Of a stretch of 63,221 nt of DNA, positions 123-17,655 are shown one piece after another. Source of the DNA: Nanobdellati archaeon. Its GTDB lineage: Archaea > Nanobdellota > Nanobdellia > Woesearchaeales > GCA-2686295. Position numbers and translations under genes: made by a program. Below the pieces are notes generated by a model, which was not told the origin of the DNA, did no database searches, and saw nothing but the letters and a program-made list of their open reading frames with translations. How positions within the stretch are numbered: the first letter of the stretch is position 1; the number at the start of each line of letters is the position of its first letter. Location: NCBI GenBank assembly GCA_014384375.1, contig JACNFY010000020.1, positions 1-63,221 of the forward strand, written 5' to 3'.

Positions 123-662
123 ATGGCTGAGGAAGACAGCATATTAGACAATATAGAAATTCATAAGAATTTTGCAATAATCTCAGTAAATCCCAAGCTT
201 TATCCTTTAAGTGTGATTTACTCTGCAGCTTACTGGCTTCTTGATAGAGTTCATGTGATTATCGATGGAGATCCTGATACAGAGATTCTTATAGAGATTC
301 GACCAAAGGATAAAGAGTCAAAAGTTGATTTAAAAGAGATTGGCTTCGAGTTCAATGATGAGCTGATAAATTATTCTGTGTATACTGTGCAGGCAACAAG
401 AAACAAGAAGTTGAGGGAGATGATTGTAGAGAATGCCCTTGCTGGAAACCTTAGGACCGGACCTCCAAATCCATCACGGTTTGAACAAAGAACTCAAATA
501 CAAACAGATGAAGAATGTCCAACTTGTTCTCCTGAAGAACAAGCAAACCGGTCTCCACGAAAAACAAAGTTTCAAACAATCGATGATCCGAAGAATATAG
601 CAGGTGTTATAAAACCCAGAAAGAGCTCTGAAGAGTTCAGGAAAGATATCAAAGAAGTTTAG
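123..662 (+). CDS. HxsD-like small protein with a roughly 75-aa compositionally distinct C-terminal tail
   Basis: ATG preceded by GGGGGA. The N-terminal ~100 aa (KLYPLSVIYSAAYWLLDR ... IGFEFNDELINYSVY ... KLREMIVENAL) resembles the HxsD family of the His-Xaa-Ser system and is paralogous to the next ORF. The tail is Pro/Arg/Gln/Glu-rich with a CPTC motif and is locally GC-richer. Confidence 0.45.
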   Translation: MAEEDSILDNIEIHKNFAIISVNPKLYPLSVIYSAAYWLLDRVHVIIDGDPDTEILIEIRPKDKESKVDLKEIGFEFNDELINYSVYTVQATRNKKLREMIVENALAGNLRTGPPNPSRFEQRTQIQTDEECPTCSPEEQANRSPRKTKFQTIDDPKNIAGVIKPRKSSEEFRKDIKEV

Positions 663-675
663 TTATTGAATAAAA

Positions 676-909
676 ATGCTCTCTGTAAAGATAGAAAATA
701 ACAAATGCATAATCAACTTCAACAAGAGGCTCTATCCAAAATCAATAATAGAACAAGGAATAATAGACTTCAAAGAAGATGAAAAAATTATTTTAACAGA
801 GAGAGGAAAAGTCATTATAACCTCTAATAAGAAGACAAATATTAATGAAGTAGGATATGAATTCTGCGATTATCTTCTTAGTCTAATTCAAGAAAGAAAC
901 AATTTTTAA
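676..909 (+). CDS. HxsD-like small protein (77 aa)
   Basis: KRLYPKSIIEQGIIDF ... VGYEFCDYLLSLIQE parallels the previous ORF. Sits directly upstream of a paired rSAM gene set. Confidence 0.45.
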   Translation: MLSVKIENNKCIINFNKRLYPKSIIEQGIIDFKEDEKIILTERGKVIITSNKKTNINEVGYEFCDYLLSLIQERNNF

Positions 910-910
910 A

Positions 911-2428: not shown

Positions 2429-2430
2429 AA

Positions 2431-3465
2431 ATGGTAGATACAGTTGATATAAAAACAGGTTACTCATGTAACAATGACTGTTATCATTGTGTCATCGCTG
2501 ACAAAAGAAGAGAGTTAATTAAAAACGGAAGAAAAGTGGACAGATCAACAGAAGAGGTAATACACCATATAAACGAAGCAACCATGGAAGGTGCTGAATC
2601 AATAGTTCTAACAGGCGGGGAAATAACTATCAGAGGGGATTTTTTTCAATTAGTGGAGTACGCGCTATCAAAAGGTTTAACTGTCATAATACAAACAAAT
2701 GGAAAGATGTTTTACTATGAAGAATTCGCTAAAAGAATAGCATCTTACGATAAAGTCCATTTAACAGTAGCTCTTCATTCACCCAAACCAGAAGTACATG
2801 ACCGGATAACTGGAAGTAAGAATAGTTTTAAACAAACCACTGAAGGAATAAGAAATTTGAAAAAACATGGCATTGGAAACAGAGTCGGGGGTAAGATAGT
2901 AATGTCAAAAATGAACTATAAAGATTTACCAGAACTAATTAAACTTGCTCACAATCTTGGCTTAATGTCAGTTAATATTGCGTTTCCTCATGCGATGGGA
3001 AATGCCCAACTGAATTTCTATGACTGTGTTCCAAAATACTCAGAAATAAAGAATTACATACTAAAAACTATTAGAAAGAGTCTAGAATTAAAAATGTACA
3101 TAGATTTTGAGGCAATGCCACTGTGCTTTCTACCTGGTTATGAGACGTTTGCTTCAGAGTTCAGACTCTCAGAGCACACTGAGTTAAGGGACTTAACACA
3201 TATAGATCCAAACTATACCAAAACTAGGAAAACAAAGGCCAAAGTCAAAGACCCAAAATGTACAAGGTGTAAACTCTATCTCCTTTGCGAAGGATGCTGG
3301 GATGACTATGCAGAAGGGTATGACACAACAGAATTAACGCCCATCCCAGGACAATATATAAGAGACCCAAGAATGCTGGAAAGTTTTAAGATACATCCAG
3401 TACCTATATATAAAAAGAATATCAATACAGTGACTTCTGAAAAAACACCCTTCCAACTGAAATAA
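2431..3465 (+). CDS. Radical SAM enzyme, paired partner of the preceding gene (HxsC position)
   Basis: CNNDCYHC near the N-terminus, GGE motif (LTGGEITIR), C-terminal CTRCKLYLLCEGC. Tightly spaced after the previous gene. Confidence 0.7.
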   Translation: MVDTVDIKTGYSCNNDCYHCVIADKRRELIKNGRKVDRSTEEVIHHINEATMEGAESIVLTGGEITIRGDFFQLVEYALSKGLTVIIQTNGKMFYYEEFAKRIASYDKVHLTVALHSPKPEVHDRITGSKNSFKQTTEGIRNLKKHGIGNRVGGKIVMSKMNYKDLPELIKLAHNLGLMSVNIAFPHAMGNAQLNFYDCVPKYSEIKNYILKTIRKSLELKMYIDFEAMPLCFLPGYETFASEFRLSEHTELRDLTHIDPNYTKTRKTKAKVKDPKCTRCKLYLLCEGCWDDYAEGYDTTELTPIPGQYIRDPRMLESFKIHPVPIYKKNINTVTSEKTPFQLK

Positions 3466-3496
3466 TCAATTACAAGATCGGCTCTATTCATTAGTC

Positions 3497-4360
3497 CTAA
3501 TCAACAACAATCTCATTAAAATTACAAACATCACAAAGCTTCAATTCATTATATTCTCCTTGAAAATGAGCTTTAACGTACTCAAGTCTTTTTTTTCCAT
3601 TCCAAACTCCAGAAATTGTGTTCTCTTTGACATTTCCTAAAATAACTTCATTTTTCCAATCAGCACAGCACAGAATAACATCCCCATTGACAAGGATGTA
3701 AATCTGGTTCATGAGCCTGCCACAGGGAATCTTCTGAACATTACTGGGACTAATCATATCATAATCAGCAACGTTTCCAGCTCTGTTCTCATATTTGAGA
3801 ATATGAACTGAAACACCCAAGCGATTCCAGTAATTCCTTATTCTGTTTAAAGAAATATCAGATAAACCTATTTTTAGCATGTGAATAGCTATTTCAGGTT
3901 TTTTTCTTTCTCCTCTTAACTTAATAAAATTTGTTATTCTCTCTTTTGTTTTTTCAAAATCAAGATTCTTCATAGCGTTCTCATATTCTTCTTTGGTTGA
4001 ACCATTGAAACTAAATATAATTTCATCAATTTCTGAATCAAGCAATTCCTTCGCTACCTTCTTTGTCAATAAAGAACCATTTGTAAATATTTTAACTAAA
4101 GAATTCGAATTCTTTTCTTTTGCATAGTTAATGTACTTAACTAAATCTTTGTTTAGAAATGGTTCATTGAGAAAGAAAGGCAATATTTGCTCAACATCTT
4201 GCTTTGAACATTCATCAGTTATCCTCTTATAGAGTACCCATTCCATAATCTGAAACTTTTTTTTACCTTCTGTATAAGGATAAGGACAGAAAGTACAAGC
4301 AGCATTGCACTTGTTGCTAGTTTGAATCTGGACAATTAAAGGAAACTTGTTTTGAAACAT
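3497..4360 (-). CDS. Small radical SAM enzyme with a twitch/SPASM-like C-terminal Cys motif
   Basis: CNAACTFCPY. Later IPCGRL ... VILCCADW ... LCDVCNF. Confidence 0.7.
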   Translation of the reverse strand: MFQNKFPLIVQIQTSNKCNAACTFCPYPYTEGKKKFQIMEWVLYKRITDECSKQDVEQILPFFLNEPFLNKDLVKYINYAKEKNSNSLVKIFTNGSLLTKKVAKELLDSEIDEIIFSFNGSTKEEYENAMKNLDFEKTKERITNFIKLRGERKKPEIAIHMLKIGLSDISLNRIRNYWNRLGVSVHILKYENRAGNVADYDMISPSNVQKIPCGRLMNQIYILVNGDVILCCADWKNEVILGNVKENTISGVWNGKKRLEYVKAHFQGEYNELKLCDVCNFNEIVVD

Positions 4361-4472: not shown

Positions 4473-4919
4473 ATGAAAAAAACAAAAAGAACTATCCATT
4501 TTTACATAAAAGATGGAAACCTAGAAGGAGAACATGCTTTACTTAAACATATCCCTTTAGAAGAAAAAGAACTCACTACTCCTAACCAAGAAACAACTCC
4601 AGAAACTGTTGATACAAACAATATATGGCCTTTAGAACCAAACATTCTGATTGAAAATGCTCAATATGACCAAAACAACAGCCAATTAATTGTAAGTCTA
4701 ACAAATCTTTCAGTTGAACCAATAAAAATCATACAAAGAGGTGTAAAGTACTCTCCCAGCGAAACAGAAAGCATAAATTTTGAAAACGTAGATATTACCC
4801 TTCCTCCTGGAGAGAACACAATTTCTATTTCTGCACCAGCAGGTAATCCTTTTAAATTTGTCATCAGAACAAGCAACAAAACTGGTTCAGGTCAAACCAG
4901 AGATGAGATAAATTGGTAA
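4473..4919 (+). CDS. Hypothetical soluble 148-aa protein embedded in the rSAM cluster
   Basis: ORF with its own TATA box and no TM segment. C-terminal half looks like a beta-sandwich (alternating pattern LIVSLTNLSVEPIKII ... TISISAPAGNPFKFVIR). No family recognised. Confidence 0.5.
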   Translation: MKKTKRTIHFYIKDGNLEGEHALLKHIPLEEKELTTPNQETTPETVDTNNIWPLEPNILIENAQYDQNNSQLIVSLTNLSVEPIKIIQRGVKYSPSETESINFENVDITLPPGENTISISAPAGNPFKFVIRTSNKTGSGQTRDEINW

Positions 4920-4985
4920 TTATTACAAAAATTTATAAAATATTTGAGTTTATATTCTAATAAGGGGATAAACTAATTTTTCAAA

Positions 4986-6677
4986 ATGCTATACTTGCCT
5001 AAACCACACTCTTGTCATCTGCAATGGCATGTAACTGAGAAGTGTAATTTCCAATGCACACACTGCTATCTGAATGAGGATTACATAAAACAAGAACTAA
5101 GCACTGAAGAATGCTACAAAGTTGTTGATAATTTTGTTGACTTCTGTAAAAAAACTGATATAAAACAGAACAGAAATCTCACCCTAACAGGTGGTGAACC
5201 AATTCTGAAAAAGGATTGGTGGAAGATTCTTGAATACATAAGCGATTACAAGAAAAGAGGACTGATTGACCGCTTTTATATCATGACTAACGGCTCAACA
5301 GTGACTGATAGCATTATAAAAAAATATGTAGAGCTAGGCGTCAACTACATGCAGATAAGCATTGAAGGTATGGAGAAAATAAACGACGAAATAAGAGGAA
5401 AAGGTAACTTCCAGAAAGCGATAAATGGTGCAAAAATAATCATTCAGAATGGCATTCCACTTTCATTCTCACTTACATTGACAAAGAAGAATACCAATGA
5501 CGTAGAATCATTAGCAAGATTAGCTGCAAGTATTGGGGTAGGCGGACTCGGCGTTGGTAGAATAGTGCCTATTGGGATGGGTGCTCAGATGAAGGAATTA
5601 ATGCTAACACCTAAAGAAACAAGAGAATGGTACTTAGAATGTGAGAGAATAAATGAAAGACTGAGAAAGGATGGACTTAACTTCAGAGTTGACTATCATT
5701 GCTCTGATGGAATGTATCAATCAATAAGACCTGACGCTAATAATCCCCAAACAAACCATGCATGTTCTACACCTTTCGATGTCTTCACATTACTGCCTAA
5801 TGGCGATGTTGTTCCTTGCAGACGACTGCCTATTGTAGTTGGAAACTTTCGAGAAAAAAGTTTCTTAGAGATACATTACTCCAGCAACAAGATTTGGAAC
5901 CTAAAGAACTGGGAGAACAGAGCAGAAGAATGCAAGACTTGCAACAGCTTGAGAGATTGCAAAGGAGGTGGTATGTGTATTGCTTACGGCTACTTTGGAA
6001 CTCCTTATGCACCTGATCCTGACTGCTGGAAAGCTTTTGGAGAGCATCTTTCAACTAAGAAGTACTCTAACCCTAATTCTAACAAAGTAACATACTTCAA
6101 AAGATATATCAATAACCTAAGGTTTGATTTAGAACCCGTCTCAAAAGAACAAATTAATAGAAAAATTAGAAGAGTGAAAATTGACAAGCTTGACAAAGTA
6201 AAAGATAACGAAGTTGACATTCTAATTTTTTATTTTGAAGAGCAAGATTTGAATACTGAAACAGGAGCAAAAATATTATCTTTTCTCAAAGACTTAAAAA
6301 AAAGAGGAGTCAAGTTTGAAATTGGTCATACTTTACCACCTTGTGTATCTGATACACAAACATTGAAAGACTTCAGATTAAAAACTCCCACTAATTGTTA
6401 TGATTGTCCTAGCTTATTTCACTTAGAGAGCAACAAAAGAATAGTCTTCTGCAATGATAGGAAAGGTCCTGACTTAAAGTTCATGAACAACAGAGATCAA
6501 ATATGGGAGTATAAAGAGTTGCTGAAAGATTATGACGAACCTAATTTTTTCAAGCAATGCAAAACGTGCGTCTATAGAATAAGAGGGACTTGCTATTACC
6601 TAAAAAACTGCAGGTTAAAACATAGAAAACTAAAGGAAGAAATAAAAACTGTCAAAGCAACAATGTGTAGTTGCTAA
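4986..6677 (+). CDS. Radical SAM/SPASM enzyme with an extra ~175-aa Cys-containing C-terminal module
   Basis: CNFQCTHC, GGEP, SPASM-like CSTPFD...VVPCRR...CKTCNSLRDCKGGGMC. The C-terminal module is shared with the next gene. Confidence 0.75.
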   Translation: MLYLPKPHSCHLQWHVTEKCNFQCTHCYLNEDYIKQELSTEECYKVVDNFVDFCKKTDIKQNRNLTLTGGEPILKKDWWKILEYISDYKKRGLIDRFYIMTNGSTVTDSIIKKYVELGVNYMQISIEGMEKINDEIRGKGNFQKAINGAKIIIQNGIPLSFSLTLTKKNTNDVESLARLAASIGVGGLGVGRIVPIGMGAQMKELMLTPKETREWYLECERINERLRKDGLNFRVDYHCSDGMYQSIRPDANNPQTNHACSTPFDVFTLLPNGDVVPCRRLPIVVGNFREKSFLEIHYSSNKIWNLKNWENRAEECKTCNSLRDCKGGGMCIAYGYFGTPYAPDPDCWKAFGEHLSTKKYSNPNSNKVTYFKRYINNLRFDLEPVSKEQINRKIRRVKIDKLDKVKDNEVDILIFYFEEQDLNTETGAKILSFLKDLKKRGVKFEIGHTLPPCVSDTQTLKDFRLKTPTNCYDCPSLFHLESNKRIVFCNDRKGPDLKFMNNRDQIWEYKELLKDYDEPNFFKQCKTCVYRIRGTCYYLKNCRLKHRKLKEEIKTVKATMCSC

Positions 6678-6694
6678 AGAAATACTTTATAAAA

Positions 6695-8599
6695 ATGAAA
6701 GTATTAATCAACTTATGTCCACCATATCAAATCGGTACAATCCCATCATTAGGATTAGGATATCTAAAAGCAATATTAAAACAAAGAAATCATGAAATCT
6801 TAATAAATGACATTAACTCTTCAGTATTCTTAAATAATAAAGAACTATTTGAAAAATTACTCCAAGAATGCAAACAATATTTGTCTAGAAATAAATTTCT
6901 TATTTATACTTATAACTTGAAAAAATTATTAACTCTATTATATCATGAATTCTTTCCAAGAGAAAAAAATAACCTTATTAAAGACATAAATTCGGAAGCA
7001 GATTTACAAGTCAAAAAAATTCTCACAAAAAAACCTGATATTATCTGCTTTTCAGTTTTTCTTACAAACATATATTTCTCAAGCATTTTAGCTAAAAAAT
7101 TGAGAAAAAATTCTGAAGTAAATATAATATTCGGAGGACCACTTTGTACAGAGGAAAATGCAAATATATTCCTTAAATTAGGTATTTGTGATTATGTTAT
7201 AAGAGGAGAAGGGGAAATAAGTTTTCAGAAACTGATTGAAACTATAGAAAAAAATCAGACTACAGATAATCTTTCTAGTGTATCATACATTCAAAACAAT
7301 AAAATAGTTCACTCTCATGATTCAAAGCTTATTAACAAACTAGATGAACTACCCATGCCTGAATTCGGAGATAAAGAATATGAGATAATTCCTATAACTT
7401 CAAGTAGAGGATGCATTAAAAATTGTTCTTTTTGTGCAGAAACAAATCAATGGCAATATTATAGGAGAAGAAAAGCGGATGATGTTGTTGAAGAGATGAA
7501 AAAAAGAATAAAAGAGAACAAAACAAAAAATTTCTTCTTCTGTGACAGCTTACTCAATTCTTCTAATAATTGGCTTGAAGAATTTTGCGAAAAGATAATC
7601 TCACTAAAAGTTGAATGGTCTGGATTCCTTAGATGTGAAAAATTAGATAAGAAACTAATACAAAAAATGAAGGAATCAGGTTGTAAAGAGGTAGCATTTG
7701 GTATTGAAAATTTCAATCAAGAAATATTAGATAGTATTAAAAAAGAAACAAAAACAAGAGATATGATAAAAATACTTAAAGAGATGTATAAACAAAAAAT
7801 TAATTTTATCATCAACTTAATAATTGGTTATCCTGGCGAGACTCAGAAATTATTTTTTAGGAATTTAGAATATCTTATCAAAATATTTAATGATATAAAG
7901 GGTTTTTTCTATATAAACTCTGAATTCTTTAAAATATACCCAGGAAGCAATATTATGAATAACTCTAAAGAATATGGTATATTCTTAAACAGCAATAAAG
8001 AAAAACTTCCTGAAGAATTAAGTTTCTTGCAAGAAGACTATAACAACTTCTTCACAAAATGGATTAATAAGGGAAAACCAAACCCTGAAGAATTCTATGA
8101 GCGAGTAAAATTCATGGAACTATTATCCTTAGGAACCAATAGAAGAACTTACTCCAAAAAGAAGTTTATAATCATAGATAACAAAAACATTGTAGACTTG
8201 TCAAAAATAGTCAATAAATTAGAGAAAAATAAAAAGTACTTATTTGAATTTAAAATTGAAGGTAACTTATTAAATGAGAATACTGGAGAAAAAATAATTG
8301 AATTCTTTGATAAGGCAAGATATAAAGGTATTGATTATGATATAAATAAAACTCTTCCCTCCTGTATTTTTAACAAAAAAAACATTAACTTTCAAAAAAG
8401 TTGCACAGACTGCAAGGAAGTATTTATTAAGAACAAACAAGAAATTTCTTTATGCTCTAGAAAAATGAAACAAATTCTTAAAATTAACAATGTTCCTAAA
8501 AGCAAACATTTTAATGAAAACAGTTTTATTCACAAATGCAAAAACTGTTATAATTGTGTTTATAGAACTAAAGGAGAATGTAATTACATATATTGTTAA
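6695..8599 (+). CDS. B12-binding-domain (class B) radical SAM enzyme with the same extra C-terminal module
   Basis: N-terminal Rossmann-like B12-binding pattern (LGLGYLKAILKQRNHEILINDIN ... IIFGGPLCT), then CIKNCSFC. I prefer the ATG at 6695 over the in-frame TTG at 6671 used by the ORF track. Confidence 0.75.
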   Translation: MKVLINLCPPYQIGTIPSLGLGYLKAILKQRNHEILINDINSSVFLNNKELFEKLLQECKQYLSRNKFLIYTYNLKKLLTLLYHEFFPREKNNLIKDINSEADLQVKKILTKKPDIICFSVFLTNIYFSSILAKKLRKNSEVNIIFGGPLCTEENANIFLKLGICDYVIRGEGEISFQKLIETIEKNQTTDNLSSVSYIQNNKIVHSHDSKLINKLDELPMPEFGDKEYEIIPITSSRGCIKNCSFCAETNQWQYYRRRKADDVVEEMKKRIKENKTKNFFFCDSLLNSSNNWLEEFCEKIISLKVEWSGFLRCEKLDKKLIQKMKESGCKEVAFGIENFNQEILDSIKKETKTRDMIKILKEMYKQKINFIINLIIGYPGETQKLFFRNLEYLIKIFNDIKGFFYINSEFFKIYPGSNIMNNSKEYGIFLNSNKEKLPEELSFLQEDYNNFFTKWINKGKPNPEEFYERVKFMELLSLGTNRRTYSKKKFIIIDNKNIVDLSKIVNKLEKNKKYLFEFKIEGNLLNENTGEKIIEFFDKARYKGIDYDINKTLPSCIFNKKNINFQKSCTDCKEVFIKNKQEISLCSRKMKQILKINNVPKSKHFNENSFIHKCKNCYNCVYRTKGECNYIYC

Positions 8600-8615
8600 A
8601 TAAAGGTGAAAAATT

Positions 8616-10532
8616 TTGGTTAATATAATGCTAAACTACGAATGCAACAAATCATGTAATTTCTGCTTTCAGAAAGGAGTGAAATTTGATTCTATGATGA
8701 GTTTTGAAGATTTCAGGAAAGTGATTGAGTGGCTTGATCAACTTGAGTTTTTCCAGAAAGCAGAAAGCAGAAAAATCTCACTAATTGGAGGAGAACCAAC
8801 CCTACACCCAAAACTCAAAGATATGATTCAGTTATTAAAAGAGAAAAACATCAAAGCAACTATTTTCTCAAACTTCGTTTTTAACGAGAAAAAACTAGAG
8901 TTGTTTGACAAAGCTGTTGTTAAGGGATTTGTAGGAACTTATAATCCAAATAGTTGGTATAAAAAATCAGAGTATGAGCTGATGGAGAAAAATATTGCTG
9001 AGCTGAAAAGAAGAGGTTTTGATGTCAAGTTTAGCTACAATATTACAAAAGGAAATCTAGATTATAATTATATTCTCGAAGCCTGTGAAAGATATGGTCT
9101 AAATAATTTAAGATTTTCAACAGCTTTTCCAAATCCTAACTATAATAATAACTATCTAAACTTTGAAGATTTAAAAAAAGTCGGAAAAAATATAACATCA
9201 TTCATAAGAGAAGCAGTTGCCAAAGGAATAACTCTTGACTTGGATTGCACAATCCCACTATGCGTATTAGGTGATGAAAAGGACATATTGTTTTTCTTAA
9301 AACATGTCAATGCAGCAAATCTTATCTGTAAATCAGCTATTGATATTAATCCAGATCTTTCAATGTATTATTGTCTTCCAAGAGCAAAGGATGTTAACAT
9401 TAAGAATGTCTTTGATTTCAACAATCTTAGAGAGATTAATGAAATCTTTAATGAAAAGAATAACAAAGAGAAAAATGAATTTTACACCTTCCCTGAGTGC
9501 AAGAGTTGCAAGTATCGCATTAGAAATGTGTGTCAAGGAGGATGCTTGTCCTTGAAAAAAAAGTTCAGCTACACTGTTACAAAAAAATTAATGTCAAAAA
9601 ATCATAAGAAAAAATTAATTGGAATAAGAACTTGGGGAGGTATTGGCGATGGATTACTTGTTACACCTGCATTGAAAGCTCTCAAGCAGAAGTATCCTAA
9701 TTCAGAGATAAGAGTTGTGTGCAATGACAACCATAAAGAGATTTTTGAGAATAATCCATCAATTGATTTTCTCTCTGTTTCCCCTGACGAATCTGCTATC
9801 AAAGATGTTAAGCAAATATATGAAACAAACTATGGCAAGCTAAAACCAAGTATTAACTATAAGAAACATGCAACAGAGATAATAGCAGACCTTCTTGAAG
9901 TTCAATTAAAAAACAAGAAATTACAGGTCTTCCTGACAGAGAAAGAAGAGGAAAAAGCAAAGAAGATTCTGTCAAAATACAAAAATCCAATAACAATGCA
10001 TATCACATCTAAGTGTTCCAAGAATCAAGAATGGTTTGTTGATAGATGGGAAAAACTTGCCAAAAACATGTTCGAATACGATTTCATTCAACTCGGCTCA
10101 AAAGATGATCCTCTTGTAAAAGGAGTTATTGATATGAGGGGAAAAACTACTGTAAGAGAAGCAATAGCTCTCGTAAAGCATTCAAAATGCTTTGTTGGTG
10201 TTGACTCTTTCTTAGGGCATGCACCAAATATAACTGGTACTCCAGGAGTTGTTCTTTTCGGACCATCAAATCCTATTGTTTGGGGTTATGATGAAAACAT
10301 TAATATCTACAAAGACTTAAAATGTGCTCCTTGCATTGATGTTCTTGGTGGTAAGAAATGTCAATATAAGAGTAGATGCATGAGAAAGATAAGTGAAAAA
10401 GAGGTAACTAACGCAATAAGAAATCAAACAGAAACAAAGAAAACAAAAGAAAACACAATCAAAAAAAATATTAAAAAAAATATTATTCTTAAAAAAATAA
10501 AGATGTTTAATCCTCTTACTCAAAAAAATTAA
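8616..10532 (+). CDS. Fusion protein: radical SAM/SPASM domain plus GT9 (heptosyltransferase-family) glycosyltransferase domain
   Basis: CNKSCNFC and GGEPTLHP, SPASM end CKSCKYRIRNVCQGGC. From about 9600, IRTWGGIGDGLLVTPALKALKQKYPNSEIRVV ... GVDSFLGHA ... VLFGPS is typical of GT9. TTG start lies 6 nt after AAAGGTGA. Confidence 0.7.
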   Translation: MVNIMLNYECNKSCNFCFQKGVKFDSMMSFEDFRKVIEWLDQLEFFQKAESRKISLIGGEPTLHPKLKDMIQLLKEKNIKATIFSNFVFNEKKLELFDKAVVKGFVGTYNPNSWYKKSEYELMEKNIAELKRRGFDVKFSYNITKGNLDYNYILEACERYGLNNLRFSTAFPNPNYNNNYLNFEDLKKVGKNITSFIREAVAKGITLDLDCTIPLCVLGDEKDILFFLKHVNAANLICKSAIDINPDLSMYYCLPRAKDVNIKNVFDFNNLREINEIFNEKNNKEKNEFYTFPECKSCKYRIRNVCQGGCLSLKKKFSYTVTKKLMSKNHKKKLIGIRTWGGIGDGLLVTPALKALKQKYPNSEIRVVCNDNHKEIFENNPSIDFLSVSPDESAIKDVKQIYETNYGKLKPSINYKKHATEIIADLLEVQLKNKKLQVFLTEKEEEKAKKILSKYKNPITMHITSKCSKNQEWFVDRWEKLAKNMFEYDFIQLGSKDDPLVKGVIDMRGKTTVREAIALVKHSKCFVGVDSFLGHAPNITGTPGVVLFGPSNPIVWGYDENINIYKDLKCAPCIDVLGGKKCQYKSRCMRKISEKEVTNAIRNQTETKKTKENTIKKNIKKNIILKKIKMFNPLTQKN

Positions 10533-10541
10533 AGATTAAAT

Positions 10542-11207
10542 ATGATAACTACAATAATTCCAACAAAAAACGAAGAAACAACAATAAAAGGAATAATTAA
10601 ATCTGTGAAACCTTATTCTGATGAGATAATCGTAATAGACGGACACTCAAAAGACAAAACAAGAGATATCTCATTAAAAGAAAAAGTTAATGTTATTCTG
10701 GATAATAAAAAAGGAAAAGGAGCCGCTCTACGAATAGCCGGAAAAAAAGCTAAGGGTGATATTCTTGTTTTTATAGATAGTGACGGCTCTCATGACCCAA
10801 AAGACATTCCTAAACTAGTAGAACCAATAGTCAAAAATAAAATAAGTTTAGTTATTGCATCAAGAATAAAAGGAGGAAGTGACGAATTCCAAGGAGATTT
10901 TGAGAAAGTATTCAGAACAATCGCAAGTCATTTAATTACTGCAACAATAAATTGGAGGTGGAAAAAGAATTTGTCTGACACCCAAAATGGCTTTAGATCT
11001 ATTAGAAAAGATGTTTTTTTGGATATTAAATTAAAAGAGAATAGTTTCACAATAGAACAAGAAATGGTTATGAAGTGTTTGAAAAAAGGATACAAAATAA
11101 TAGAGATACCTAGTCATGAGTATCAAAGAAAGAAAGGAATATCAAGAATAAAGCTTTGGAAAGAAGGACCAAAGTATGTCTGGTGCCTGATAAAAAATAT
11201 TTTATAA
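10542..11207 (+). CDS. GT2 glycosyltransferase (dolichyl/polyprenyl-phosphate sugar synthase-like)
   Basis: IIPTKNEE ... IIVIDGHSKDKT ... FIDSDGSHDP ... GFR motifs. Confidence 0.8.
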   Translation: MITTIIPTKNEETTIKGIIKSVKPYSDEIIVIDGHSKDKTRDISLKEKVNVILDNKKGKGAALRIAGKKAKGDILVFIDSDGSHDPKDIPKLVEPIVKNKISLVIASRIKGGSDEFQGDFEKVFRTIASHLITATINWRWKKNLSDTQNGFRSIRKDVFLDIKLKENSFTIEQEMVMKCLKKGYKIIEIPSHEYQRKKGISRIKLWKEGPKYVWCLIKNIL

Positions 11208-11244: not shown

Positions 11245-12282
11245 ATGAAAAAAGAAATTAATCTTGTAAAAAATATAATTCTATCAAACTTTAAAAGACT
11301 AAAAAAACCATACAAACTAACATTCGCAGTAACTTATAACTGCAACTCAAAATGTGTGAATTGCAATATTTGGAAAAAAAAAAGCACAAATGAACTAACA
11401 CTAAATGAAATAAAGAAATTCTTTGAAAAAAACAACCACTTCTCATGGATAGACCTCACCGGAGGAGAAATAACCAAAAGAAAAGACATAGTTCAAATAA
11501 CAGAAACAATCATTAAGAACTGTAAAAACTTATATTTATTACATTACCCAACAAACGCTGAATCAATCAAAAAAACAGTAGAAACAACAAATAAAATACT
11601 AGCTTTGAAACCACATAAATTCATTGTCAGTATAAGTCTAGATGGACCTCCTAAAACACATAATAAGATAAGAGGGTTAAAAAACAGCTGGAAAAGAAGT
11701 GTCAACTGTTATAAAGAATTAAAAAAAATAAGAAGTAGCTCGTTTGATGTATTTTTTGGCATGACAATTTCTAATGACAACTATGATAAGATTAATGAAA
11801 CAATTAAAACTATCAGAAAAGAAGTTCCAAACTTTAAGTATTCAGACCTGCACATCAACATAATTCATGAATCAAAACATTATTATAAGAATAAAATTAA
11901 AGGATTAAAAAAAGAAAGCATATTAAAAGCAGTGGAGAAGTTTAAGAAAAAAAGAGGTGTGCCAAGAAATCTTAGAGAGATAATGGAATATAAATACTTA
12001 AGTTCTATCCCTAAATATTTATACACAGAAAAAACACCCATAACATGTCAAGCTTTATCTGCTTCCTGTTTTCTAGACCCTTATGGAAATATACACCCTT
12101 GCATTGTTTACTATAAATTAATCGAAAACATAAAAAAAATAAACTATGATCTAAAAAAGCTCTGGCAAGAAAAAAGTATCGAAAAGTTAAGAAAAGAAAT
12201 AATACAAAAAAAATGTCAAAATTGCTGGACTCCTTGTGAGGCCTATCAAAGCATATTAGCTAATCTAAAAAATGTTAAATAA
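11245..12282 (+). CDS. Radical SAM enzyme with C-terminal SPASM-like Cys motifs
   Basis: CNSKCVNC, LTGGEIT, CQALSASCFLDPYGNIHPC ... CQNCWTPC. Confidence 0.7.
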   Translation: MKKEINLVKNIILSNFKRLKKPYKLTFAVTYNCNSKCVNCNIWKKKSTNELTLNEIKKFFEKNNHFSWIDLTGGEITKRKDIVQITETIIKNCKNLYLLHYPTNAESIKKTVETTNKILALKPHKFIVSISLDGPPKTHNKIRGLKNSWKRSVNCYKELKKIRSSSFDVFFGMTISNDNYDKINETIKTIRKEVPNFKYSDLHINIIHESKHYYKNKIKGLKKESILKAVEKFKKKRGVPRNLREIMEYKYLSSIPKYLYTEKTPITCQALSASCFLDPYGNIHPCIVYYKLIENIKKINYDLKKLWQEKSIEKLRKEIIQKKCQNCWTPCEAYQSILANLKNVK

Positions 12283-13771
12283 GACATCAAAGAAAAATAT
12301 TCTTTACATACATCCTTACTGTAATAAAGATAATTCTGATTTTGTATTCTTACCTGGAGGAATTATTGGTGTGATTAATAATCTTAGGAAAAAAGGTTTC
12401 AAAGTTATCGGGGTTAATCTTCCTCTAGAAATGAAACTGAATCGTAATATAGATATTAAAGAAACACTGAAAGAAATTGATTTCCAAATTGTAATAATGG
12501 ATTGTCATTGGTACTATTTTCTTTATGGAGTCCAAGAAGTTGCTAGGGTCTGCAAAGAAATAAATCCAAAATGCTATGTGATTATAGGAGGGTTCTCAGC
12601 TAATTTTTTCAGGAAGAATATTCTAACATCATCAGACAACATAGATGTTATAATTAAAGGAGACTCTGAAACTTTATTGCCAAAAATTTGTAATGATATA
12701 ATATCAGAAGGAAAAAAATCAATCAAAAAGTTTCCTAATGTTTCTTATGAAAACGTTTTCTGGTTTATGGCTGACAAAGAAATAAAAAGCTTTGACAATG
12801 ACATTAATAAATTTGATTATGTAGACATGACATTTATGAAACATTGGCAAGAATATTTAAAGTTCCATCCTGGAAAAGAGGCTCCTGGAATCTCACAAAT
12901 AGTTGGGAACAAACAATTTTTTTACTTGCCAACCCAGAAAGGCTGCAAAAACCTATGCCCTGCCTGCGGAGGAAGCAAGTTTTCTTACAAAATCCTATCA
13001 AACAAAAAAGAATTATGTGTAAGATCTCCTGAAAAAATAATTAATGACATTAAAAAGCTTAAAGATATGGGTGTAAAAAATGTAATGGTTTCATGCGAAT
13101 CCAATTTAAATAATTGGCCTAAAATACTAAAAGAATTAGAGAGAGAAAATATTTTTATAGATATTTTATTTGAAGATTGGCAATTGCCAAATAAGAAATT
13201 AACCAAGCAAATGGTTTCATATGCAAAAAATACTGACTCCGGATTCTTGGTTTCAGCTCTTTCCGGAAATGATATTATAAGAATAAAAAATGGCAAGCAT
13301 TACAAAAATAAAGAACTTTCAGAATTTGCAAAATCGATTTCAAAATCTTGTTCTTCTTATGCTACATTTTGGTTTTCTCCAAATCTTGTTGGTGGCACTC
13401 AAAAATATTTTCAGGATACAATATTATTGGCTAAAGAATTAACTGAACTGAATAAATTCGCTGAAAAACCAAATATAAACGTTCTAATGAGTCCTATGGA
13501 AGTAGATATAACGAGTGATGTTTATTCCAATCCTTCATCATACAAATTTTCAGGAAAGTTGTGGGGTTATGATTATATCATAAAACTTTTAAGATTTAGA
13601 GAGCAAGGAAAGAAACTTGGAAACATGTCTTATTGTTCAAAAGAAATAAATATTGAAGAAGGCAATAAAATGTGTGAGAAATTCAAGGAAGAGATTTCAT
13701 TGTTAAAGAATAGGATTAGAGACTTTAGAAAATCAGGAATTTTCCCAACTACCAAGACTTTAATAGAATAA
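12272..13771 (+). CDS. B12-binding-domain-like radical SAM enzyme
   Basis: N-terminal Rossmann-like segment (GVINNLRKKGFKVIGVNL ... VIIGGFSAN), then CKNLCPAC. 11-nt overlap with the previous gene. Confidence 0.65.
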   Translation: MLNKTSKKNILYIHPYCNKDNSDFVFLPGGIIGVINNLRKKGFKVIGVNLPLEMKLNRNIDIKETLKEIDFQIVIMDCHWYYFLYGVQEVARVCKEINPKCYVIIGGFSANFFRKNILTSSDNIDVIIKGDSETLLPKICNDIISEGKKSIKKFPNVSYENVFWFMADKEIKSFDNDINKFDYVDMTFMKHWQEYLKFHPGKEAPGISQIVGNKQFFYLPTQKGCKNLCPACGGSKFSYKILSNKKELCVRSPEKIINDIKKLKDMGVKNVMVSCESNLNNWPKILKELERENIFIDILFEDWQLPNKKLTKQMVSYAKNTDSGFLVSALSGNDIIRIKNGKHYKNKELSEFAKSISKSCSSYATFWFSPNLVGGTQKYFQDTILLAKELTELNKFAEKPNINVLMSPMEVDITSDVYSNPSSYKFSGKLWGYDYIIKLLRFREQGKKLGNMSYCSKEINIEEGNKMCEKFKEEISLLKNRIRDFRKSGIFPTTKTLIE

Positions 13772-13807: not shown

Positions 13808-13823
13808 GTAGAGAAAAAGTTTA

Positions 13824-15161
13824 TTATTCATTTTTTGGTTTGAAAACAGAGTTATAAGGGATACTATACTTTTCTAAGAATGAAACATATTTATTAATAT
13901 GTTGCATGTTGTCTATGTTGATAAAATAATTATATTTTTCTATGTTTTTCTTTAAAGTTGTTGGATCTTTATATTTTGTTTTTAAAGTATGACCTAAAAA
14001 AGAATCAAAATATAGACGAAAAAGCATGAGATTAACATGACTGTAATTTCTATGATTATCATACAAATATTTTAAAGTTTGTTCAACATCGGATTCTGTT
14101 TCTCCAGGGTATCCCATAATTATATTAACTTGTGGTTGAATATTAACTTGATTACACAGAGCCATTATCTGCTCAAATTTCTTTAAATTAACAGGTTTGT
14201 TCATCAGTTTCAAAACTCTTTTTGAACCACTTTCTAGGCCAAACTGAATCCATCTACAGCCTGCTTCGCTCATCTTTTTAATTATTTTTTTAGTCATAAG
14301 GTTTGCTGATGCAAGTGCGTACCATTCAACATCTATTATTTTGAGAGCATCCATAAGCACAATTGTCCTTTTATGGTTTGTATTTATATTATCATCTTGA
14401 AAACAGAATTGGTTACAGTTATATCTGGCTTTTAAATGTTTTATTTCATTTATTACTTTAGACACTCTTTTATACTGTGGTTTTTTGTTTGTCAAACCAC
14501 AAAAACGACACTTATTAACACACCCTTCAGAAGTCATATATTGAAGAGTCAAATCTTTTTTAATATTATAATAAAAGTCATAATTAGGGCAAAGTTGGGA
14601 ATCAATGTTGTATCCTTCAATCTTGTTTAGTTTTGTGACTCCATATTTATTTCTGAAAACTAAATTTGGGATTTTCTTAAAAGATTTTTTGTTTTTAATA
14701 TTTTTTATTAACTCACAAAATTGATGTTCTCCTTTTTTCATAACTATAAAATCAATAAAGGAGAAATCATTCATAAGTTCTTGTTCATGGTTAAATGTTC
14801 CTATTCCGCCAAAAATAATTTTTTTATTTGGATCTATAGATTTTATGTACTTTGCGAGAAGAAGGGACTGTTTTAAGGATTCAAAGGAAAAACAAGAAAA
14901 ACCTACTATCTCAGTGTTTATAAGACTTGAAATTTTATCTAGGGCTGTTTCCATCTCAACAGATATTTTGTTAAAGTACAAATACTGATTTATGTCATGT
15001 GTTGAAAACAATATATCTAGATCACCAATTTTTTTTAGATAATTATAATCTATAATATTTGGTTCTATACCGTTTTCTTTAAGAGTACTTACTACCACAC
15101 AAAATCCAAAAGACAAACTTTCATAAGGTATGTACTCTGAGTTTACAAGAGTGATTCTCAT
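13824..15161 (-). CDS. B12-binding-domain (class B) radical SAM enzyme
   Basis: N-terminal B12-binding-like region (IVGFSCFSFE ... IIFGGIGTF), CVNKCRFCG, later GLESGS and GYPGET motifs. Confidence 0.75.
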   Translation of the reverse strand: MRITLVNSEYIPYESLSFGFCVVVSTLKENGIEPNIIDYNYLKKIGDLDILFSTHDINQYLYFNKISVEMETALDKISSLINTEIVGFSCFSFESLKQSLLLAKYIKSIDPNKKIIFGGIGTFNHEQELMNDFSFIDFIVMKKGEHQFCELIKNIKNKKSFKKIPNLVFRNKYGVTKLNKIEGYNIDSQLCPNYDFYYNIKKDLTLQYMTSEGCVNKCRFCGLTNKKPQYKRVSKVINEIKHLKARYNCNQFCFQDDNINTNHKRTIVLMDALKIIDVEWYALASANLMTKKIIKKMSEAGCRWIQFGLESGSKRVLKLMNKPVNLKKFEQIMALCNQVNIQPQVNIIMGYPGETESDVEQTLKYLYDNHRNYSHVNLMLFRLYFDSFLGHTLKTKYKDPTTLKKNIEKYNYFINIDNMQHINKYVSFLEKYSIPYNSVFKPKNE

Positions 15162-15366
15162 TTAAATTTGAAATAATTTAATTATTTAAAAAAGTTTACA
15201 TTAAAATTTTATGTTTTTTATAATATTTATTTTGCTTAATTAAAAAAACTTCAAAATATTACATACAAGAATTTTTTTGGATTTATTGTTGATAAAAAAA
15301 TAAAGATTTCAGAAAACAGAGATTTCTTCATAAAATTATTTAAACAATAATAATTAACACATTCTT

Positions 15367-17655
15367 ATGAGGGGTTTTTTGAGGAAACATTACTTGCTTA
15401 TCATAATACTTGTCATAGGAGTTTTCTTTCGATTATACAATCTTGGAACTTCTAATCTTCATACTGATGAAGCAGAGGTCTATCTAGCTTCTCAAAATAT
15501 TCTTAAGTCAGGTGTTCCTAAAGGTTTCCATAGAGTTCCTTTCTATGAGAACGCTTATCTCTTCGAATCAAACACTTCAATGTATGAGTTTGCTCCAACA
15601 AATTATTACAAGTCAGATTTAGTTTTGAAAAAAGGTTGGCTTCCGTATTATTTGACTGCATTCTTTTCTTTATTCGGAAAGAACGAGTTCTTGCTTAGAT
15701 TTCCTTTTGCTCTTATAGGAGTAATCTCTTTGTTCTTTTTTTTCCAACTAACAAACATATTGTTTAACAAAAGAACTGCTCTTATAGCTTTATTCTTTTA
15801 TGCTATCAGTCCAAGCTTATTATTCTATGAGAGAATGGTTAGGTATTACTCTCCTATGATTTTATTCATTATATTATCAATTTATTTCTATGTTAAGGCT
15901 TTCAAAGAAGATAATTGGAAAAACTATCTTTTAGGAGCATTTTCATTAGTTTTATTATTCTACACAAATGTGTTAATATTTTTGTCATTAGTAATAGTTC
16001 TTTTCATTTTCTGGTTTACTAAGAGGATTAAAATTAATAGAAATTTAATTTATTCAGATTTAATCATTATTGCTCTAATTCTTCCATGGATTTTATTTAG
16101 TGGTTTTTTATGGAACATTGCTAAAGAGCCAAGACAAATTACGGCACCTGTATTTCAATCAATCACAGCAGGTATTAACAATAACGGATCATTATACTTT
16201 TTCTTTTATTTAGGAATCATATTACTATTAATAAATATAATTTTTAAGAAAAAAATTCATAATAAAACTTTTCTTTGGAAGAATAACAGTTCAAATTATT
16301 TAATCTTAATCTATTTATTAGCTCTTATAATTATCCCCTACTTGCTAGCTCCTTCAAGTTCTTTTGAAGAAAAATTATTCTTATCTTTGATTCCCTTTTC
16401 ATTAATAATAATAGCTAAATTATTTGATTCTATTTTTAAGGTCTCAGAGAATAATATTTTCAAATATGTTGTAATAATTTTAATAGTTATTATAAGCATT
16501 GTTCACATTGAAACAGCTATAGGACGCAAAGGCCATAATATTATAACTTTGAAAGAAATAATAAATATTGATAGAAATGAATTATATAATGATATTGAAG
16601 AAGTTATAAAAGAACAAACTTCTGGCAATCCATTGATACTAACAACTTCTGAACAATTTCCTTTGATGTTCTACACAGATTATTCTGCTCAAACAATCTG
16701 GCCTGTTAGAGAAGAGTTTATTAACAACTATGATGAAGAACTTGTCATTATTGAGACTGGTTTTGTTGAAGGAACATGTAATTTATTCTATCGATATGTA
16801 AATCCTGCTGTGAGATGTAATAACAACAAGAACTATCTCGACAGAATCAATGAGTGCAAGGCTTTTGCAATGGATGAGACAACAAACCTGTATTTCTGCA
16901 AGAAAAGAAAAAAATTCATAGGCGGTGGTCTTGGCTTGTTTTTCCCAGACTTTCCAGAGAATCAACCGCCTGACTTTATCTGGGACTTAGAACCTTTCCA
17001 AGTTGCGGTAAATGTCAAGAATCTTGGAGAGAGTAATGTGGATAAATTGAAAATTATTTTTATCCAAGATTTTGGTGGAAGAGAGTTTGATACTGAAAAG
17101 AGCGAATTCTTGTTTAACAAAAAAATAGCTGGCAGAAAAAAAGTCTCTGGTGAAGTCATAACAAGCGAGGAATTCTTCGATTTAGGTAATGTTACTTTTA
17201 ATCATAAGCTTCCTTTAAAGCTAAGATACATCAATGCTAGTGTCAAGCTCTGCTATCCATACATAACTATGCTTAGAATTAACATATGTAATGATTCTCT
17301 GAATATTTGCAACTATGATGTTTCAGGAGGTCCTATGCAGATTAACAGTGTTTCCTATGATGAATTAAACTTTAACTTTTCAATATATAACTCTGCTGAG
17401 GGCTTTCTTGGAAATTTTGAGAATTGCCAAGAAGATAATATGACGAAAGAAATCAAAGTTGAATCTGATTTTTTCAAATGCGAAAAACTAAAAGACGAGT
17501 TTAGATGCCAAGCAGATGTTTTAAAGATTAGAAAGGACGATTATTATCTGATAAGCATCAACTATGACTACCAGCAGGAGTTCAAGAAAGGTCTTCTTCT
17601 AAGGAGCAAGGAGCGGAACAAGTATGACTATGAAAATTTTTACAAAAAAGAATAG
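15367..17655 (+). CDS. GT-C fold membrane glycosyltransferase (ArnT/PMT_2-like) with a ~250-aa extracytoplasmic C-terminal domain
   Basis: About 12 predicted TM helices. Acidic first-loop motif HTDEAEVY. C-terminal soluble Cys-containing domain with a CARDB-like strand pattern (FQVAVNVKNLGES). Confidence 0.65.
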   Translation: MRGFLRKHYLLIIILVIGVFFRLYNLGTSNLHTDEAEVYLASQNILKSGVPKGFHRVPFYENAYLFESNTSMYEFAPTNYYKSDLVLKKGWLPYYLTAFFSLFGKNEFLLRFPFALIGVISLFFFFQLTNILFNKRTALIALFFYAISPSLLFYERMVRYYSPMILFIILSIYFYVKAFKEDNWKNYLLGAFSLVLLFYTNVLIFLSLVIVLFIFWFTKRIKINRNLIYSDLIIIALILPWILFSGFLWNIAKEPRQITAPVFQSITAGINNNGSLYFFFYLGIILLLINIIFKKKIHNKTFLWKNNSSNYLILIYLLALIIIPYLLAPSSSFEEKLFLSLIPFSLIIIAKLFDSIFKVSENNIFKYVVIILIVIISIVHIETAIGRKGHNIITLKEIINIDRNELYNDIEEVIKEQTSGNPLILTTSEQFPLMFYTDYSAQTIWPVREEFINNYDEELVIIETGFVEGTCNLFYRYVNPAVRCNNNKNYLDRINECKAFAMDETTNLYFCKKRKKFIGGGLGLFFPDFPENQPPDFIWDLEPFQVAVNVKNLGESNVDKLKIIFIQDFGGREFDTEKSEFLFNKKIAGRKKVSGEVITSEEFFDLGNVTFNHKLPLKLRYINASVKLCYPYITMLRINICNDSLNICNYDVSGGPMQINSVSYDELNFNFSIYNSAEGFLGNFENCQEDNMTKEIKVESDFFKCEKLKDEFRCQADVLKIRKDDYYLISINYDYQQEFKKGLLLRSKERNKYDYENFYKKE

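Follow-up and report, generated by a model that had tools for sequence, protein, structure and literature searches.

A radical-SAM gene cluster of a Woesearchaeales archaeon as a candidate variant of the Hxs-type protein-maturation systems

We analysed a 63,221-nt stretch of DNA (the window) from a Nanobdellati archaeon of the Woesearchaeales (contig JACNFY010000020.1), which begins with a cluster of radical S-adenosylmethionine (rSAM) enzyme genes. Within 17.6 kb, this cluster contains nine rSAM genes, two HxsD-like genes and three glycosyltransferase (GT) genes, namely a GT2, a GT9 fused to an rSAM enzyme and a GT-C, and it adjoins the genes of two giant proteins saturated with N-x-S/T sequons. 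The genes for HxsD, an HxsD-like protein, HxsB and an HxsC-like protein make up an Hxs-type maturase set, to which those of two further conserved rSAM enzymes of the SPASM type (rSAM/SPASM) are added. We consider it moderately probable that the region as a whole is an expanded variant of the Hxs-type rSAM protein-maturation systems, multi-step, coupled to glycosylation and belonging to a narrow group of DPANN archaea. It is not the canonical Hxs system, since it lacks HxsA and its HxsC-like protein does not reach the family cut-off, nor is it the classical DPANN form, since the peptidase and the precursor of that form are missing. Its mode of action is most probably like that of Hxs systems, i.e. 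rSAM protein maturation with HxsD-type partners.

Hxs genes and conserved gene order

The head of the cluster (positions 123–2428) is an Hxs module by curated NCBIfam cut-offs. HxsD, which in Hxs systems is a small protein serving as partner or chaperone (123–662, + strand; 179 aa, with a C-terminal extension of about 70 aa), matches TIGR03976 with 56.4 bits (cut-off 50) and shares 56–86% identity with its orthologues in syntenic loci of other genomes. It is followed by an HxsD-like protein of 77 aa (676–909, +; NF038315 HxsD_rel, 45.9 bits, cut-off 41), the gene of which lies between HxsD and HxsB in every related locus. The HxsD motifs LYW and LLNDYxLRE are degenerate in the window copies, which read FEFNDELINY and YEFCDYLLSL. 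HxsB, an rSAM/SPASM maturase (911–2428, +; 505 aa, with the motif CNQKCIYC), reaches 432.9 bits with TIGR03978 (cut-off 370) in a full-length match covering HxsB residues 23–475. Its homologues number 807 at E<=1e-30; the named entries among the best 120 are mostly from DPANN archaea, and these 120 include Aenigmarchaeota, Diapherotrites, Altiarchaeales, Woesearchaeota, Nanoarchaeota and one Patescibacteria. Directly 3' of HxsB, in the position of HxsC, is the gene of an HxsC-like rSAM protein (2431–3465, +; 344 aa, CNNDCYHC, with a C-terminal CxxCx5CxxC motif), which has HxsC4 and HxsC as its best NCBIfam matches and orthologues of 38–71% identity in the related loci.

Contexts of related genes were fetched by means of the rSAM-GT9 fusion protein and compared by BLAST, with flanks of at most 10 kb. 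About nine other assemblies, most of them labelled as Nanoarchaeota, share the gene order of the cluster, with fusion proteins 43–86% identical to that of the window. In the loci designated L003, L005/L016, L008, L010 and L012, the shared order from 5' to 3' is HxsD, HxsD_rel, HxsB, HxsC-like, a set of variable genes, orf148 (an orphan gene described below), an rSAM/SPASM gene referred to as rSAM/SPASM-563, rSAM-GT9 and GT-C. A minus-strand gene for an rSAM/SPASM protein of about 290 aa precedes orf148 in some of the loci only, and genes for a Cys-rich protein of about 160 aa and a lipoprotein of about 100 aa follow the GT-C gene in L005/L016, L006/L015, L008 and L010. A gene encoding tandem helix-turn-helix (HTH) repeats comes next in L006/L015 and L010; the L006/L015 contig ends before the Hxs genes. 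The most divergent locus, L002 (fusion protein 43%), is partly syntenic, with its Hxs genes inverted relative to the rest. Genes varying between loci are those for B12-binding rSAM enzymes, the GT2, an rSAM/SPASM protein of 345 aa, SAM methyltransferases, deacetylases and APS kinase. Because the order is conserved across divergent genomes, the cluster is not a chance pile-up of genes; the original prediction had guessed at a coherent system that would be contradicted by scattered genes in related genomes, and such scattering was not seen. For two contigs carrying the cluster (L017/L003 and L018/L002), the deposited bins bear the names 'Methanosarcinales archaeon' and 'Candidatus Aminicenantes bacterium'; judging from the gene content of the contigs, these are probably errors of binning or labelling.

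The core protein rSAM/SPASM-563 (4986–6677, +; 563 aa, CNFQCTHC; PF04055 81.5 bits, PF13186 35.5 bits) bears a Cys-rich C-terminal module of about 150 aa. Its orthologues are 50–82% identical in all loci of the orf148 type, and in two of the classical Hxs loci considered below it is matched at 50% over its full length (L013) and at 40% over residues 6–351 (L023).

The signature gene of the sub-family is the fusion (8616–10532, +), in which an rSAM/SPASM-like part (residues 1–310, CNKSCNFC; PF04055 44.2 bits) precedes a GT9 domain of the GT-B type (residues 334–605; PF01075 40.9 bits, cut-off 22). Among 5.8 billion proteins it forms 13 full-length clusters with 43–100% identity, and the named relatives are assigned to Nanoarchaeota or simply to 'archaeon'. 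The AlphaFold2 (AF2) model, with a mean pLDDT of 77, has two domains joined by a disordered linker. In Foldseek searches, the GT half, which has a GT-B fold like that of WaaC, WaaF and TibC, matched 3tov, WaaF and TibC (E=5e-13 for 3tov, 9e-11 for 1psw and about 5e-10 for TibC), and the nearest structures to the rSAM half were anSME, SuiB, PqqE, SkfB and CteB; anSME, SuiB, PqqE and SkfB are SPASM enzymes modifying peptides or proteins. Sequence searches of the PDB with the fusion and with rSAM/SPASM-563 returned generic rSAM and GT9 matches only. An unfused orthologue of the rSAM half (42%) is located between the peptidase and HxsD in L013; the fused form occurs only in the window-type loci and L002, and to our knowledge GT9 is fused to an rSAM domain in no characterised enzyme. 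Bacterial relatives of the rSAM half (Acetobacterium, Anaerocolumna and Desulfovibrio; 29–36%) were uninformative; the one context read, that of Acetobacterium (L019), is unrelated, the rSAM gene there adjoining a large oxidoreductase-like gene.

Three more core genes follow further downstream. The GT-C membrane glycosyltransferase (15367–17655, +; 762 aa; PMT_2, PF13231 58 bits, cut-off 26.1) has orthologues of 34–82% identity in all syntenic loci, and a [T/S/F]DEAE sequence after its first transmembrane (TM) segment is conserved in six of them. Such an acidic DE motif, located in the first extracytoplasmic loop, characterises the PMT/ArnT-like GT-C family. The extracytoplasmic C-terminal domain of the window's GT-C, of about 250 aa, is homologous to a 732-aa lipoprotein of L013, the gene of which immediately follows that of the HxsC-like protein there. 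The last 32 nt of the GT-C gene are overlapped by the start of a gene for a membrane-anchored Cys-rich protein (17624–18103, +; 159 aa, with an N-terminal TM segment and 13 invariant Cys; orthologues of 46–55% in L005, L006/L015, L008 and L010), which is followed by a gene for a small predicted lipoprotein (18096–18401, −; 101 aa, with an LT[AS]C lipobox-like signal; orthologues of 32–46% in the same loci).

orf148 and the classical DPANN Hxs loci

Five classical loci were compared with the window (L002, L013, L014, L022 and L023), and all five contain an A24/Arc_PepC-like membrane peptidase, HxsD, a second HxsD-like gene, HxsB and a precursor gene. The precursors start with a leader (IKKxISSFxxxEExxIxKxxLL), continue with a hydrophobic stretch and end in His/Ser/Cys repeats, which are of the SHGSHG type in L014 and L022, HSNC/HSSC in L013 and L023, and HxNC in L002. 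The L014 precursor scored 52.1 with HxsA4 (cut-off 55). Two of the precursors had been missed in gene calling and a third had been given a truncated start. An orthologue of rSAM/SPASM-563 is present in 2 of the 5 loci and one of the fusion's rSAM half in 1 of the 5.

Several of these loci deserve separate mention. In L002, a protein of at least 926 aa (4846–7779, +) is built up almost wholly from THDNCHTESHSNCHSNCSYPESTSPD-type repeats and has 101 HxNC motifs; as its HxsA4-type leader lies upstream of the called ATG, translation probably starts at a non-ATG codon upstream of position 4999. The A24-like peptidase is encoded 3' of this gene (7794–8876). In L013, an HxsA-like precursor of 169 aa (6594–7103, +), with a leader and HSNC/HTNC/HSSC repeats, is encoded immediately upstream of the A24-like peptidase gene, the public gene call (6699–7046, −) being on the wrong strand. 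L022 (1–21356), on a Diapherotrites-type contig, contains 11 rSAM genes in 21 kb surrounding HxsB, a pair of HxsD-like genes, the gene of an A24 peptidase and that of a His-rich precursor (11383–11949), which had not been called and has a run of N inside its SHGSHG repeat. It is a larger rSAM 'super-cluster' than that of the window, and with its 11 rSAM genes it indicates that a comparable expansion of multiple rSAM genes around Hxs exists in at least one other DPANN lineage.

The window and the loci of its type contain orf148 (4473–4919, +), an orphan gene for a 148-aa protein without a Pfam or NCBIfam match. It is represented by 16 clusters in a database clustered at 90% identity and by 12 representatives among 1.84 billion proteins, with no remote homologues, and it occurs only with this cluster. 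The AF2 model (mean pLDDT 74) predicts a disordered N-terminal region of about 50 aa, conserved at a few positions, then a beta-sandwich of seven strands, modelled with confidence, and a short tail. A Trp residue at or near the C-terminus is conserved (it is not terminal in two members), and the most conserved part of the protein is the folded beta-sandwich, not the tail. We found orf148 in seven locus types lacking both a His-rich precursor and an A24 peptidase, and it was absent from all five loci having both. Within the sequence seen, the orf148-type loci contain no His-rich or HxS-repeat ORF; likewise, no A24-like peptidase was matched by BLAST in the 63-kb window (E<=0.01) or in these loci (E<=1e-5). 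An HxsA4-type leader hidden Markov model (HMM) gave no match in the window, and His-rich stop-to-stop frames outside the cluster region are few, short and unannotated. In L008, the HxsC-like gene is immediately followed by orf148, in the slot usually taken by HxsA in the bacterial order D-B-C-A. From its position, its exclusivity and the complementary distribution we infer that orf148 encodes the substrate. A Foldseek match of orf148 to an archaeal type IV pilin domain (8fk7_A, the top match; E=9e-4, TM-score 0.43), attractive in view of the A24 peptidases of related loci, was not used, because the fold is a generic Ig-like beta-sandwich and the hydrophobic N-terminal helix is lacking.

Accessory rSAM enzymes and neighbouring genes

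The first 18.4 kb of the window consist of 16 tightly packed genes, with intergenic gaps mostly of <70 nt and four overlaps, a spacing like that of an operon; two genes of the rSAM cluster (3497–4360 and 13824–15161) are on the minus strand. ORFs of at least 150 aa with a CxxxCxxC motif number 9 in the first 15.2 kb versus 2 in the other 48 kb, and each of the nine motif strings read in the original prediction is present in one of the former, the coordinates of which are given with the individual genes. The Pfam gathering score for Radical_SAM is reached by 8 of the 9. A Pfam SPASM domain is present in three (3497–4360, 4986–6677 and 11245–12282) and SPASM-type C-terminal Cys clusters also in HxsB, the HxsC-like protein and the rSAM half of the fusion, giving five to six SPASM/twitch-like enzymes, in agreement with the predicted five. 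The three predicted B12-binding domains were recovered as well, with 40.6, 30.8 and 32.3 bits (PF02310, cut-off 32.1), and Pfam and NCBIfam agree with the assignment of the two HxsD-like genes and of the GT2 (97.8 bits), GT9-rSAM (40.9 bits) and GT-C (58 bits) genes.

Five of the rSAM genes are not part of the invariant core. The rSAM/SPASM protein of 287 aa (3497–4360, −; CNAACTFC; PF04055 57.5 bits, PF13186 46.3 bits) is semi-conserved, with orthologues in L002, L005/L016, L010/L011 and L012 and none in L003 or L008. The other four are accessory. A B12-binding rSAM enzyme of 642 aa (6671–8599, +; CIKNCSFC; PF02310 40.6 bits, PF04055 60 bits; GC 25.6%) carries the same Cys-rich C-terminal module as rSAM/SPASM-563 and has a true orthologue only in L006/L007/L015; its best NCBIfam match is TIGR03975, a family of C-methyltransferases of ribosomally synthesised and post-translationally modified peptides (RiPPs), at 146.5 bits (cut-off 281.85). 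No clear orthologue of the 345-aa rSAM/SPASM protein (11245–12282, +; CNSKCVNC; PF04055 46.9 bits, PF13186 25.7 bits) was found in the syntenic loci. The B12-binding rSAM protein of 499 aa (12272–13771, +; CKNLCPAC; PF02310 30.8 bits), the ninth ORF, reaches 19.4 bits with PF04055 and 174.7 bits with the B12-rSAM family TIGR04190 (cut-off 500); a full-length orthologue exists only in L006/L015 (58%), with a fragment at the edge of L005/L016. The third B12-binding enzyme, of 445 aa (13824–15161, −; CVNKCRFC; PF04055 83.3 bits, PF02310 32.3 bits), has a 64% orthologue located upstream of HxsD in L005/L016. TIGR03975 is the best NCBIfam match for two of the three B12-rSAM proteins, the second score being 134.3 bits. 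Among the accessory genes is also that of the GT2 (10542–11207, +; 221 aa; PF00535 97.8 bits), which resembles polyprenyl-phosphate sugar synthases and scores below the NCBIfam cut-offs (AglJ 128 versus 325; also PpgS and Dol-P-hexose transferase); weak counterparts occur in L002, L012 and L013 only. The accessory genes have the lowest GC content of the window cluster (25.6–27.4%), below that of the core. The best reading is that the B12-rSAM enzymes, the GT2 and the methyltransferases are variable accessories.

The Cys-rich module of about 150 aa (TLPPC...CxxC...C...CxxCxYRxRGxC) is encoded at 6100–6677 and 8080–8599 of the window and at 9500–9987 of L003, its carriers being rSAM/SPASM-563, the 642-aa B12-rSAM enzyme and, in L003, a DUF362 Fe-S protein. 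In the GT9 fusion, the C-terminal half of the rSAM domain is a homologous region. That one module occurs on three classes of enzymes suggests that these have a partner or substrate in common.

Downstream of the cluster, a tandem-HTH protein of 110 aa (18853–19185, +; Sigma70_r4_2, 45.5 bits in two stretches) consists of two near-identical repeats resembling sigma-70 region 4 (YHEIAE.LNRDDRTIWTVY.RAK.KR). It has orthologues of 67–69% in L006/L015 and L010, and the end of its gene overlaps the start of that for a giant surface protein of 2010 aa (19115–25147, +), apparently a type-II membrane protein and a possible glycosylation target. The latter begins with a basic coiled-coil region of about 100 aa and a single TM segment, after which come two long arrays of ENIT/INVT or NVT sequons (residues ~210–390 and ~755–930) with a poly-Glu/Lys linker between them; the C-terminal half, beyond the arrays, is rich in Cys. 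As predicted, both giant neighbours are rich in sequons: we counted 143 in the 2010-aa protein and 96 in the second one, of 1328 aa, about 3.6 and 2.8 times the number estimated from composition. Orthologues of the 2010-aa protein (48–54%, with Laminin_G_3) follow the cluster in L006/L015, L008 and L010. Downstream of the second giant protein are a pair of genes for a MoxR-type AAA ATPase and a DUF58 protein (36037–37962), near which CARDB-like and other predicted surface proteins are encoded; their adjacency suggests a larger island for surface biogenesis. A tenth CxxxCxxC protein (39531–40403, −; 290 aa, CINDCGYC) is encoded outside the cluster next to the sole tRNA gene of the window (39447–39531; 85 nt, 53 bits with Rfam), to which ARAGORN gave an unassignable four-base anticodon and which probably has an archaeal intron near the anticodon loop.

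Interpretation and relation to known systems

According to the pathway we propose, the His-rich precursor and the A24-type peptidase would have been replaced by orf148, acting as substrate or scaffold. In the cytoplasm, the two HxsD-type proteins may present it to HxsB, the HxsC-like protein, rSAM/SPASM-563 and the rSAM half of the fusion, which would introduce radical modifications, for example cross-links or other C-H functionalisations, and to which the variable B12-rSAM enzymes might add C-methyl groups. The GT9 domain, tethered to a maturase, could glycosylate the same substrate from a nucleotide sugar, in the manner of TibC, a protein heptosyltransferase. In a second arm, the GT2 would make a polyprenyl-phosphate sugar to be used by the GT-C on the outside of the membrane, jointly with the lipoprotein and the Cys-rich membrane protein, the latter presumably being translationally coupled to the GT-C; the acceptor is possibly the neighbouring giant sequon-rich protein.

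Several points weigh against this interpretation. The chemistry of the enzymes cannot be read from sequence, and SPASM and B12-binding rSAM enzymes also act on sugars, lipids and cofactors. The HxsC-like protein reaches 102.3 bits with HxsC4 (NF038332) and 95.7 bits with HxsC (TIGR03977), versus cut-offs of 500 and 267.9. The cluster region contains no His-rich or HxS/HxNC-repeat ORF of at least 30 aa and no canonical HxsA. A repeat precursor could lie upstream of the contig end, because such repeats break assemblies, as the gap inside the L022 precursor illustrates: its own start is 205 nt away from the end of the source contig (GCA_016783785.1, JADHVY010000003.1), so that the left border of the cluster is not known. 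The cluster is probably truncated, since L012, a close relative, has further glycan-type genes upstream of HxsD (PMT_2, GT2-deacetylase, B12-rSAM and DUF2079 genes). The complementary distribution of orf148 is based on about 12 loci with at most 10 kb of flank each. The proposal that the N-terminus of orf148 is an HxsA4-type leader was rejected, as the hhalign P-value went from 0.045 with three leaders to 0.09 over 8 columns with five, and a five-leader hmmsearch gave E of about 0.6; none of the 14 orf148 members was matched by the HxsA3 or HxsA4 NCBIfam models even at E<=10. In addition, the orf148 protein has neither a signal peptide nor a membrane segment, so that no connection is apparent between the arm in the cytoplasm and the extracytoplasmic one.

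The original prediction offered two alternatives, multi-step peptide maturation and radical tailoring of a lipid-linked glycan or cell-surface glycoconjugate. The former gained support and the latter, as the main role of the rSAM enzymes, received none of a positive kind, and maturation of a protein or peptide is clearly the better supported, because of the Hxs head, the orthologues in precursor-bearing loci and the SPASM-like structure of the fusion's rSAM half. If glycan tailoring nevertheless applied, most of the rSAM enzymes would modify sugars, a polyprenyl-linked oligosaccharide or a lipid headgroup, the product would decorate surface proteins and Hxs would be a side module. We regard this as unlikely, and the same goes for the chemistry it entails, i.e. 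methylation, epimerisation or ring contraction. It could draw on the three glycosyltransferases, one of them rSAM-fused, on the polysaccharide deacetylases, DUF2079 and YfhO proteins, cytidylyltransferase, APS kinase and SAM methyltransferases added in relatives, on the synteny of the giant sequon-rich protein, and on the B12-rSAM and SPASM/twitch enzymes that act on sugars or lipids, such as GenK, BtrN, Tes and Gms. However, the rSAM enzymes conserved across loci are exactly those common to the classical Hxs loci with precursors, whereas those typical of tailoring (B12-rSAM enzymes, GT2 and methyltransferases) are the variable ones; the fusion's rSAM half is structurally nearest mostly to SPASM enzymes modifying peptides and proteins; and no sugar-acting rSAM family ranks high, identity with Tes (NF045702) having been rejected at 31–32 bits versus 450.

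It is likewise improbable that two or three independent modules (Hxs, accessory rSAM enzymes and glycosylation) merely share a surface island without a common product. The variable content between the Hxs and GT genes, the inversion of the Hxs genes in L002, the lower GC of the accessory genes, the two genes on the opposite strand, and the PMT_2 genes, which are common in DPANN surface islands and vary in position in L012, L013 and L023, are all compatible with such an assemblage, but the fusion of an Hxs-associated rSAM enzyme to GT9 recurs in 13 protein clusters, the GT-C domain recurs as a separate lipoprotein right after the HxsC-like gene in L013, and both halves are adjacent down to 43% fusion identity. 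We consider it very improbable that the cluster is a pathway for a cofactor or other small molecule, in which the orf148 tail with its Trp would be radically modified, excised and glycosylated into a diffusible product by the logic of mycofactocin or PQQ. The conserved Trp of this cluster-specific small protein, the co-occurrence of glycosyltransferases and methylating enzymes, which the mycofactocin pathway likewise has (MftC, MftF and MftM), and the matches of rSAM/SPASM-563 to the mycofactocin maturase MftC (TIGR03962, 126.9 bits) and to PqqE (92 bits) would suit it. Yet these scores are far below the cut-offs (265 and 381), the cluster encodes no RiPP recognition element (RRE) of the MftB/PqqD type, no peptidase and no dependent oxidoreductase, and orf148 is most conserved in its beta-sandwich, with a non-terminal Trp in two members. 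Mycofactocin was rejected as an identity also because MftF reached 36 bits (cut-off 280) and no MftA/MftB-like protein was found; the exclusion of the PQQ, mycofactocin, sactipeptide and Tes pathways made in the original prediction thus held, all these families, as well as the heme-type rSAM enzymes, being far below their cut-offs.

The bacterial HXS system (HxsD-HxsB-HxsC-HxsA), the first description of which PMC9062424 attributes to Haft and Basu, is an antiphage system that blocks phage DNA entry in E. coli (Li et al. 2026, PMC13128918). In that system HxsB and HxsC mature the repeat protein HxsA, HxsD binds HxsC, and the processed effector acts outside the cytoplasm; the effector shows a change of +8 Da, the chemistry of which is still unsolved, and 99.7% of the systems are from Pseudomonadota, archaea not being mentioned (PMC13128918). 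The window cluster resembles it in having HxsB, HxsD and a second rSAM in the HxsC position, in the order D-(D')-B-C, and in its logic of rSAM maturation with a small HxsD partner. In contrast, it lacks an HxsA bearing HxS repeats or a peptidoglycan-binding domain, and its HxsC-like protein is far below the cut-off; it has a second HxsD-like gene, at least two more conserved rSAM enzymes, three B12-rSAM enzymes and three glycosyltransferases, and the host is an archaeon without a periplasm. PADLOC found in the window only generic rSAM-core similarity to pVip.

Also related to the window cluster are the 'type 4' Hxs loci of DPANN and candidate phyla radiation (CPR) organisms (L013, L014, L022 and L023), with HxsD, HxsD_rel, HxsB and an HxsC4-like rSAM, orthologues (40–50%) of the rSAM/SPASM-563 core and the fusion's rSAM half, and often a PMT_2 GT-C nearby; they have a leader-bearing repeat precursor and an A24-like peptidase, whereas the window type lacks both and has orf148. 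As in multi-rSAM RiPP pathways, such as those of the proteusins (polytheonamide PoyB/C/D) and other systems with SPASM maturases, several rSAM enzymes, B12 C-methyltransferase-like enzymes and one precursor would be clustered, but the candidate substrate is a folded protein of 148 aa, with no nitrile-hydratase-type leader, protease or transporter. The GT9 domain is structurally near TibC (about 5e-10) of TibC/BAHT protein glycosylation, and also near lipopolysaccharide (LPS) heptosyltransferases. The PMT_2 protein, with its loop-1 DE motif, and the DPM-synthase-like GT2 recall the pairing of a PMT-type GT-C with a polyprenyl-phosphate sugar synthase, except that the GT2 of the window is not conserved across loci.

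Literature searches brought up nothing relevant on Hxs systems of archaea or on clusters of rSAM and glycosyltransferase genes in DPANN genomes, nor did we find descriptions of the rSAM-GT9 fusion, a folded orphan in place of the precursor, the Cys-rich module on three enzyme classes or the link to a GT-C with a dedicated extracytoplasmic domain. The view that no known pathway has this composition is only half right: the core is a variant of Hxs, for which NCBIfam already has models (HxsA4 NF038313, HxsC4 NF038332 and HxsD_rel NF038315), and what appears to be undescribed is the enlarged set of genes, along with the rSAM-GT9 fusion and the precursor's replacement. It is tempting, if rather speculative and in our estimate quite unlikely, to extend the argument to DPANN Hxs 'super-clusters' in general, which would build a radically cross-linked or methylated, glycosylated surface component, with folded orf148 replacing the repeat precursor in the lineage of the window and a dedicated rSAM-GT9 enzyme coupling radical chemistry to glycosylation; like bacterial HXS, the product would act at the envelope, as a barrier to the entry of virus genomes or in host attachment.

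HxsB relatives are widespread in DPANN archaea, and the forms in the few loci examined here are much more elaborate. In one DPANN lineage the repeat precursor seems to have been exchanged for a small folded protein, and a maturase has been fused to a glycosyltransferase. Such a compact gene set could reveal how HxsB- and HxsC-type enzymes act and whether radical chemistry is coupled to protein glycosylation. It is also relevant to the way in which host-dependent archaea with reduced genomes construct surfaces that are heavily glycosylated; nine rSAM genes at one locus are a large investment for genomes of this size.

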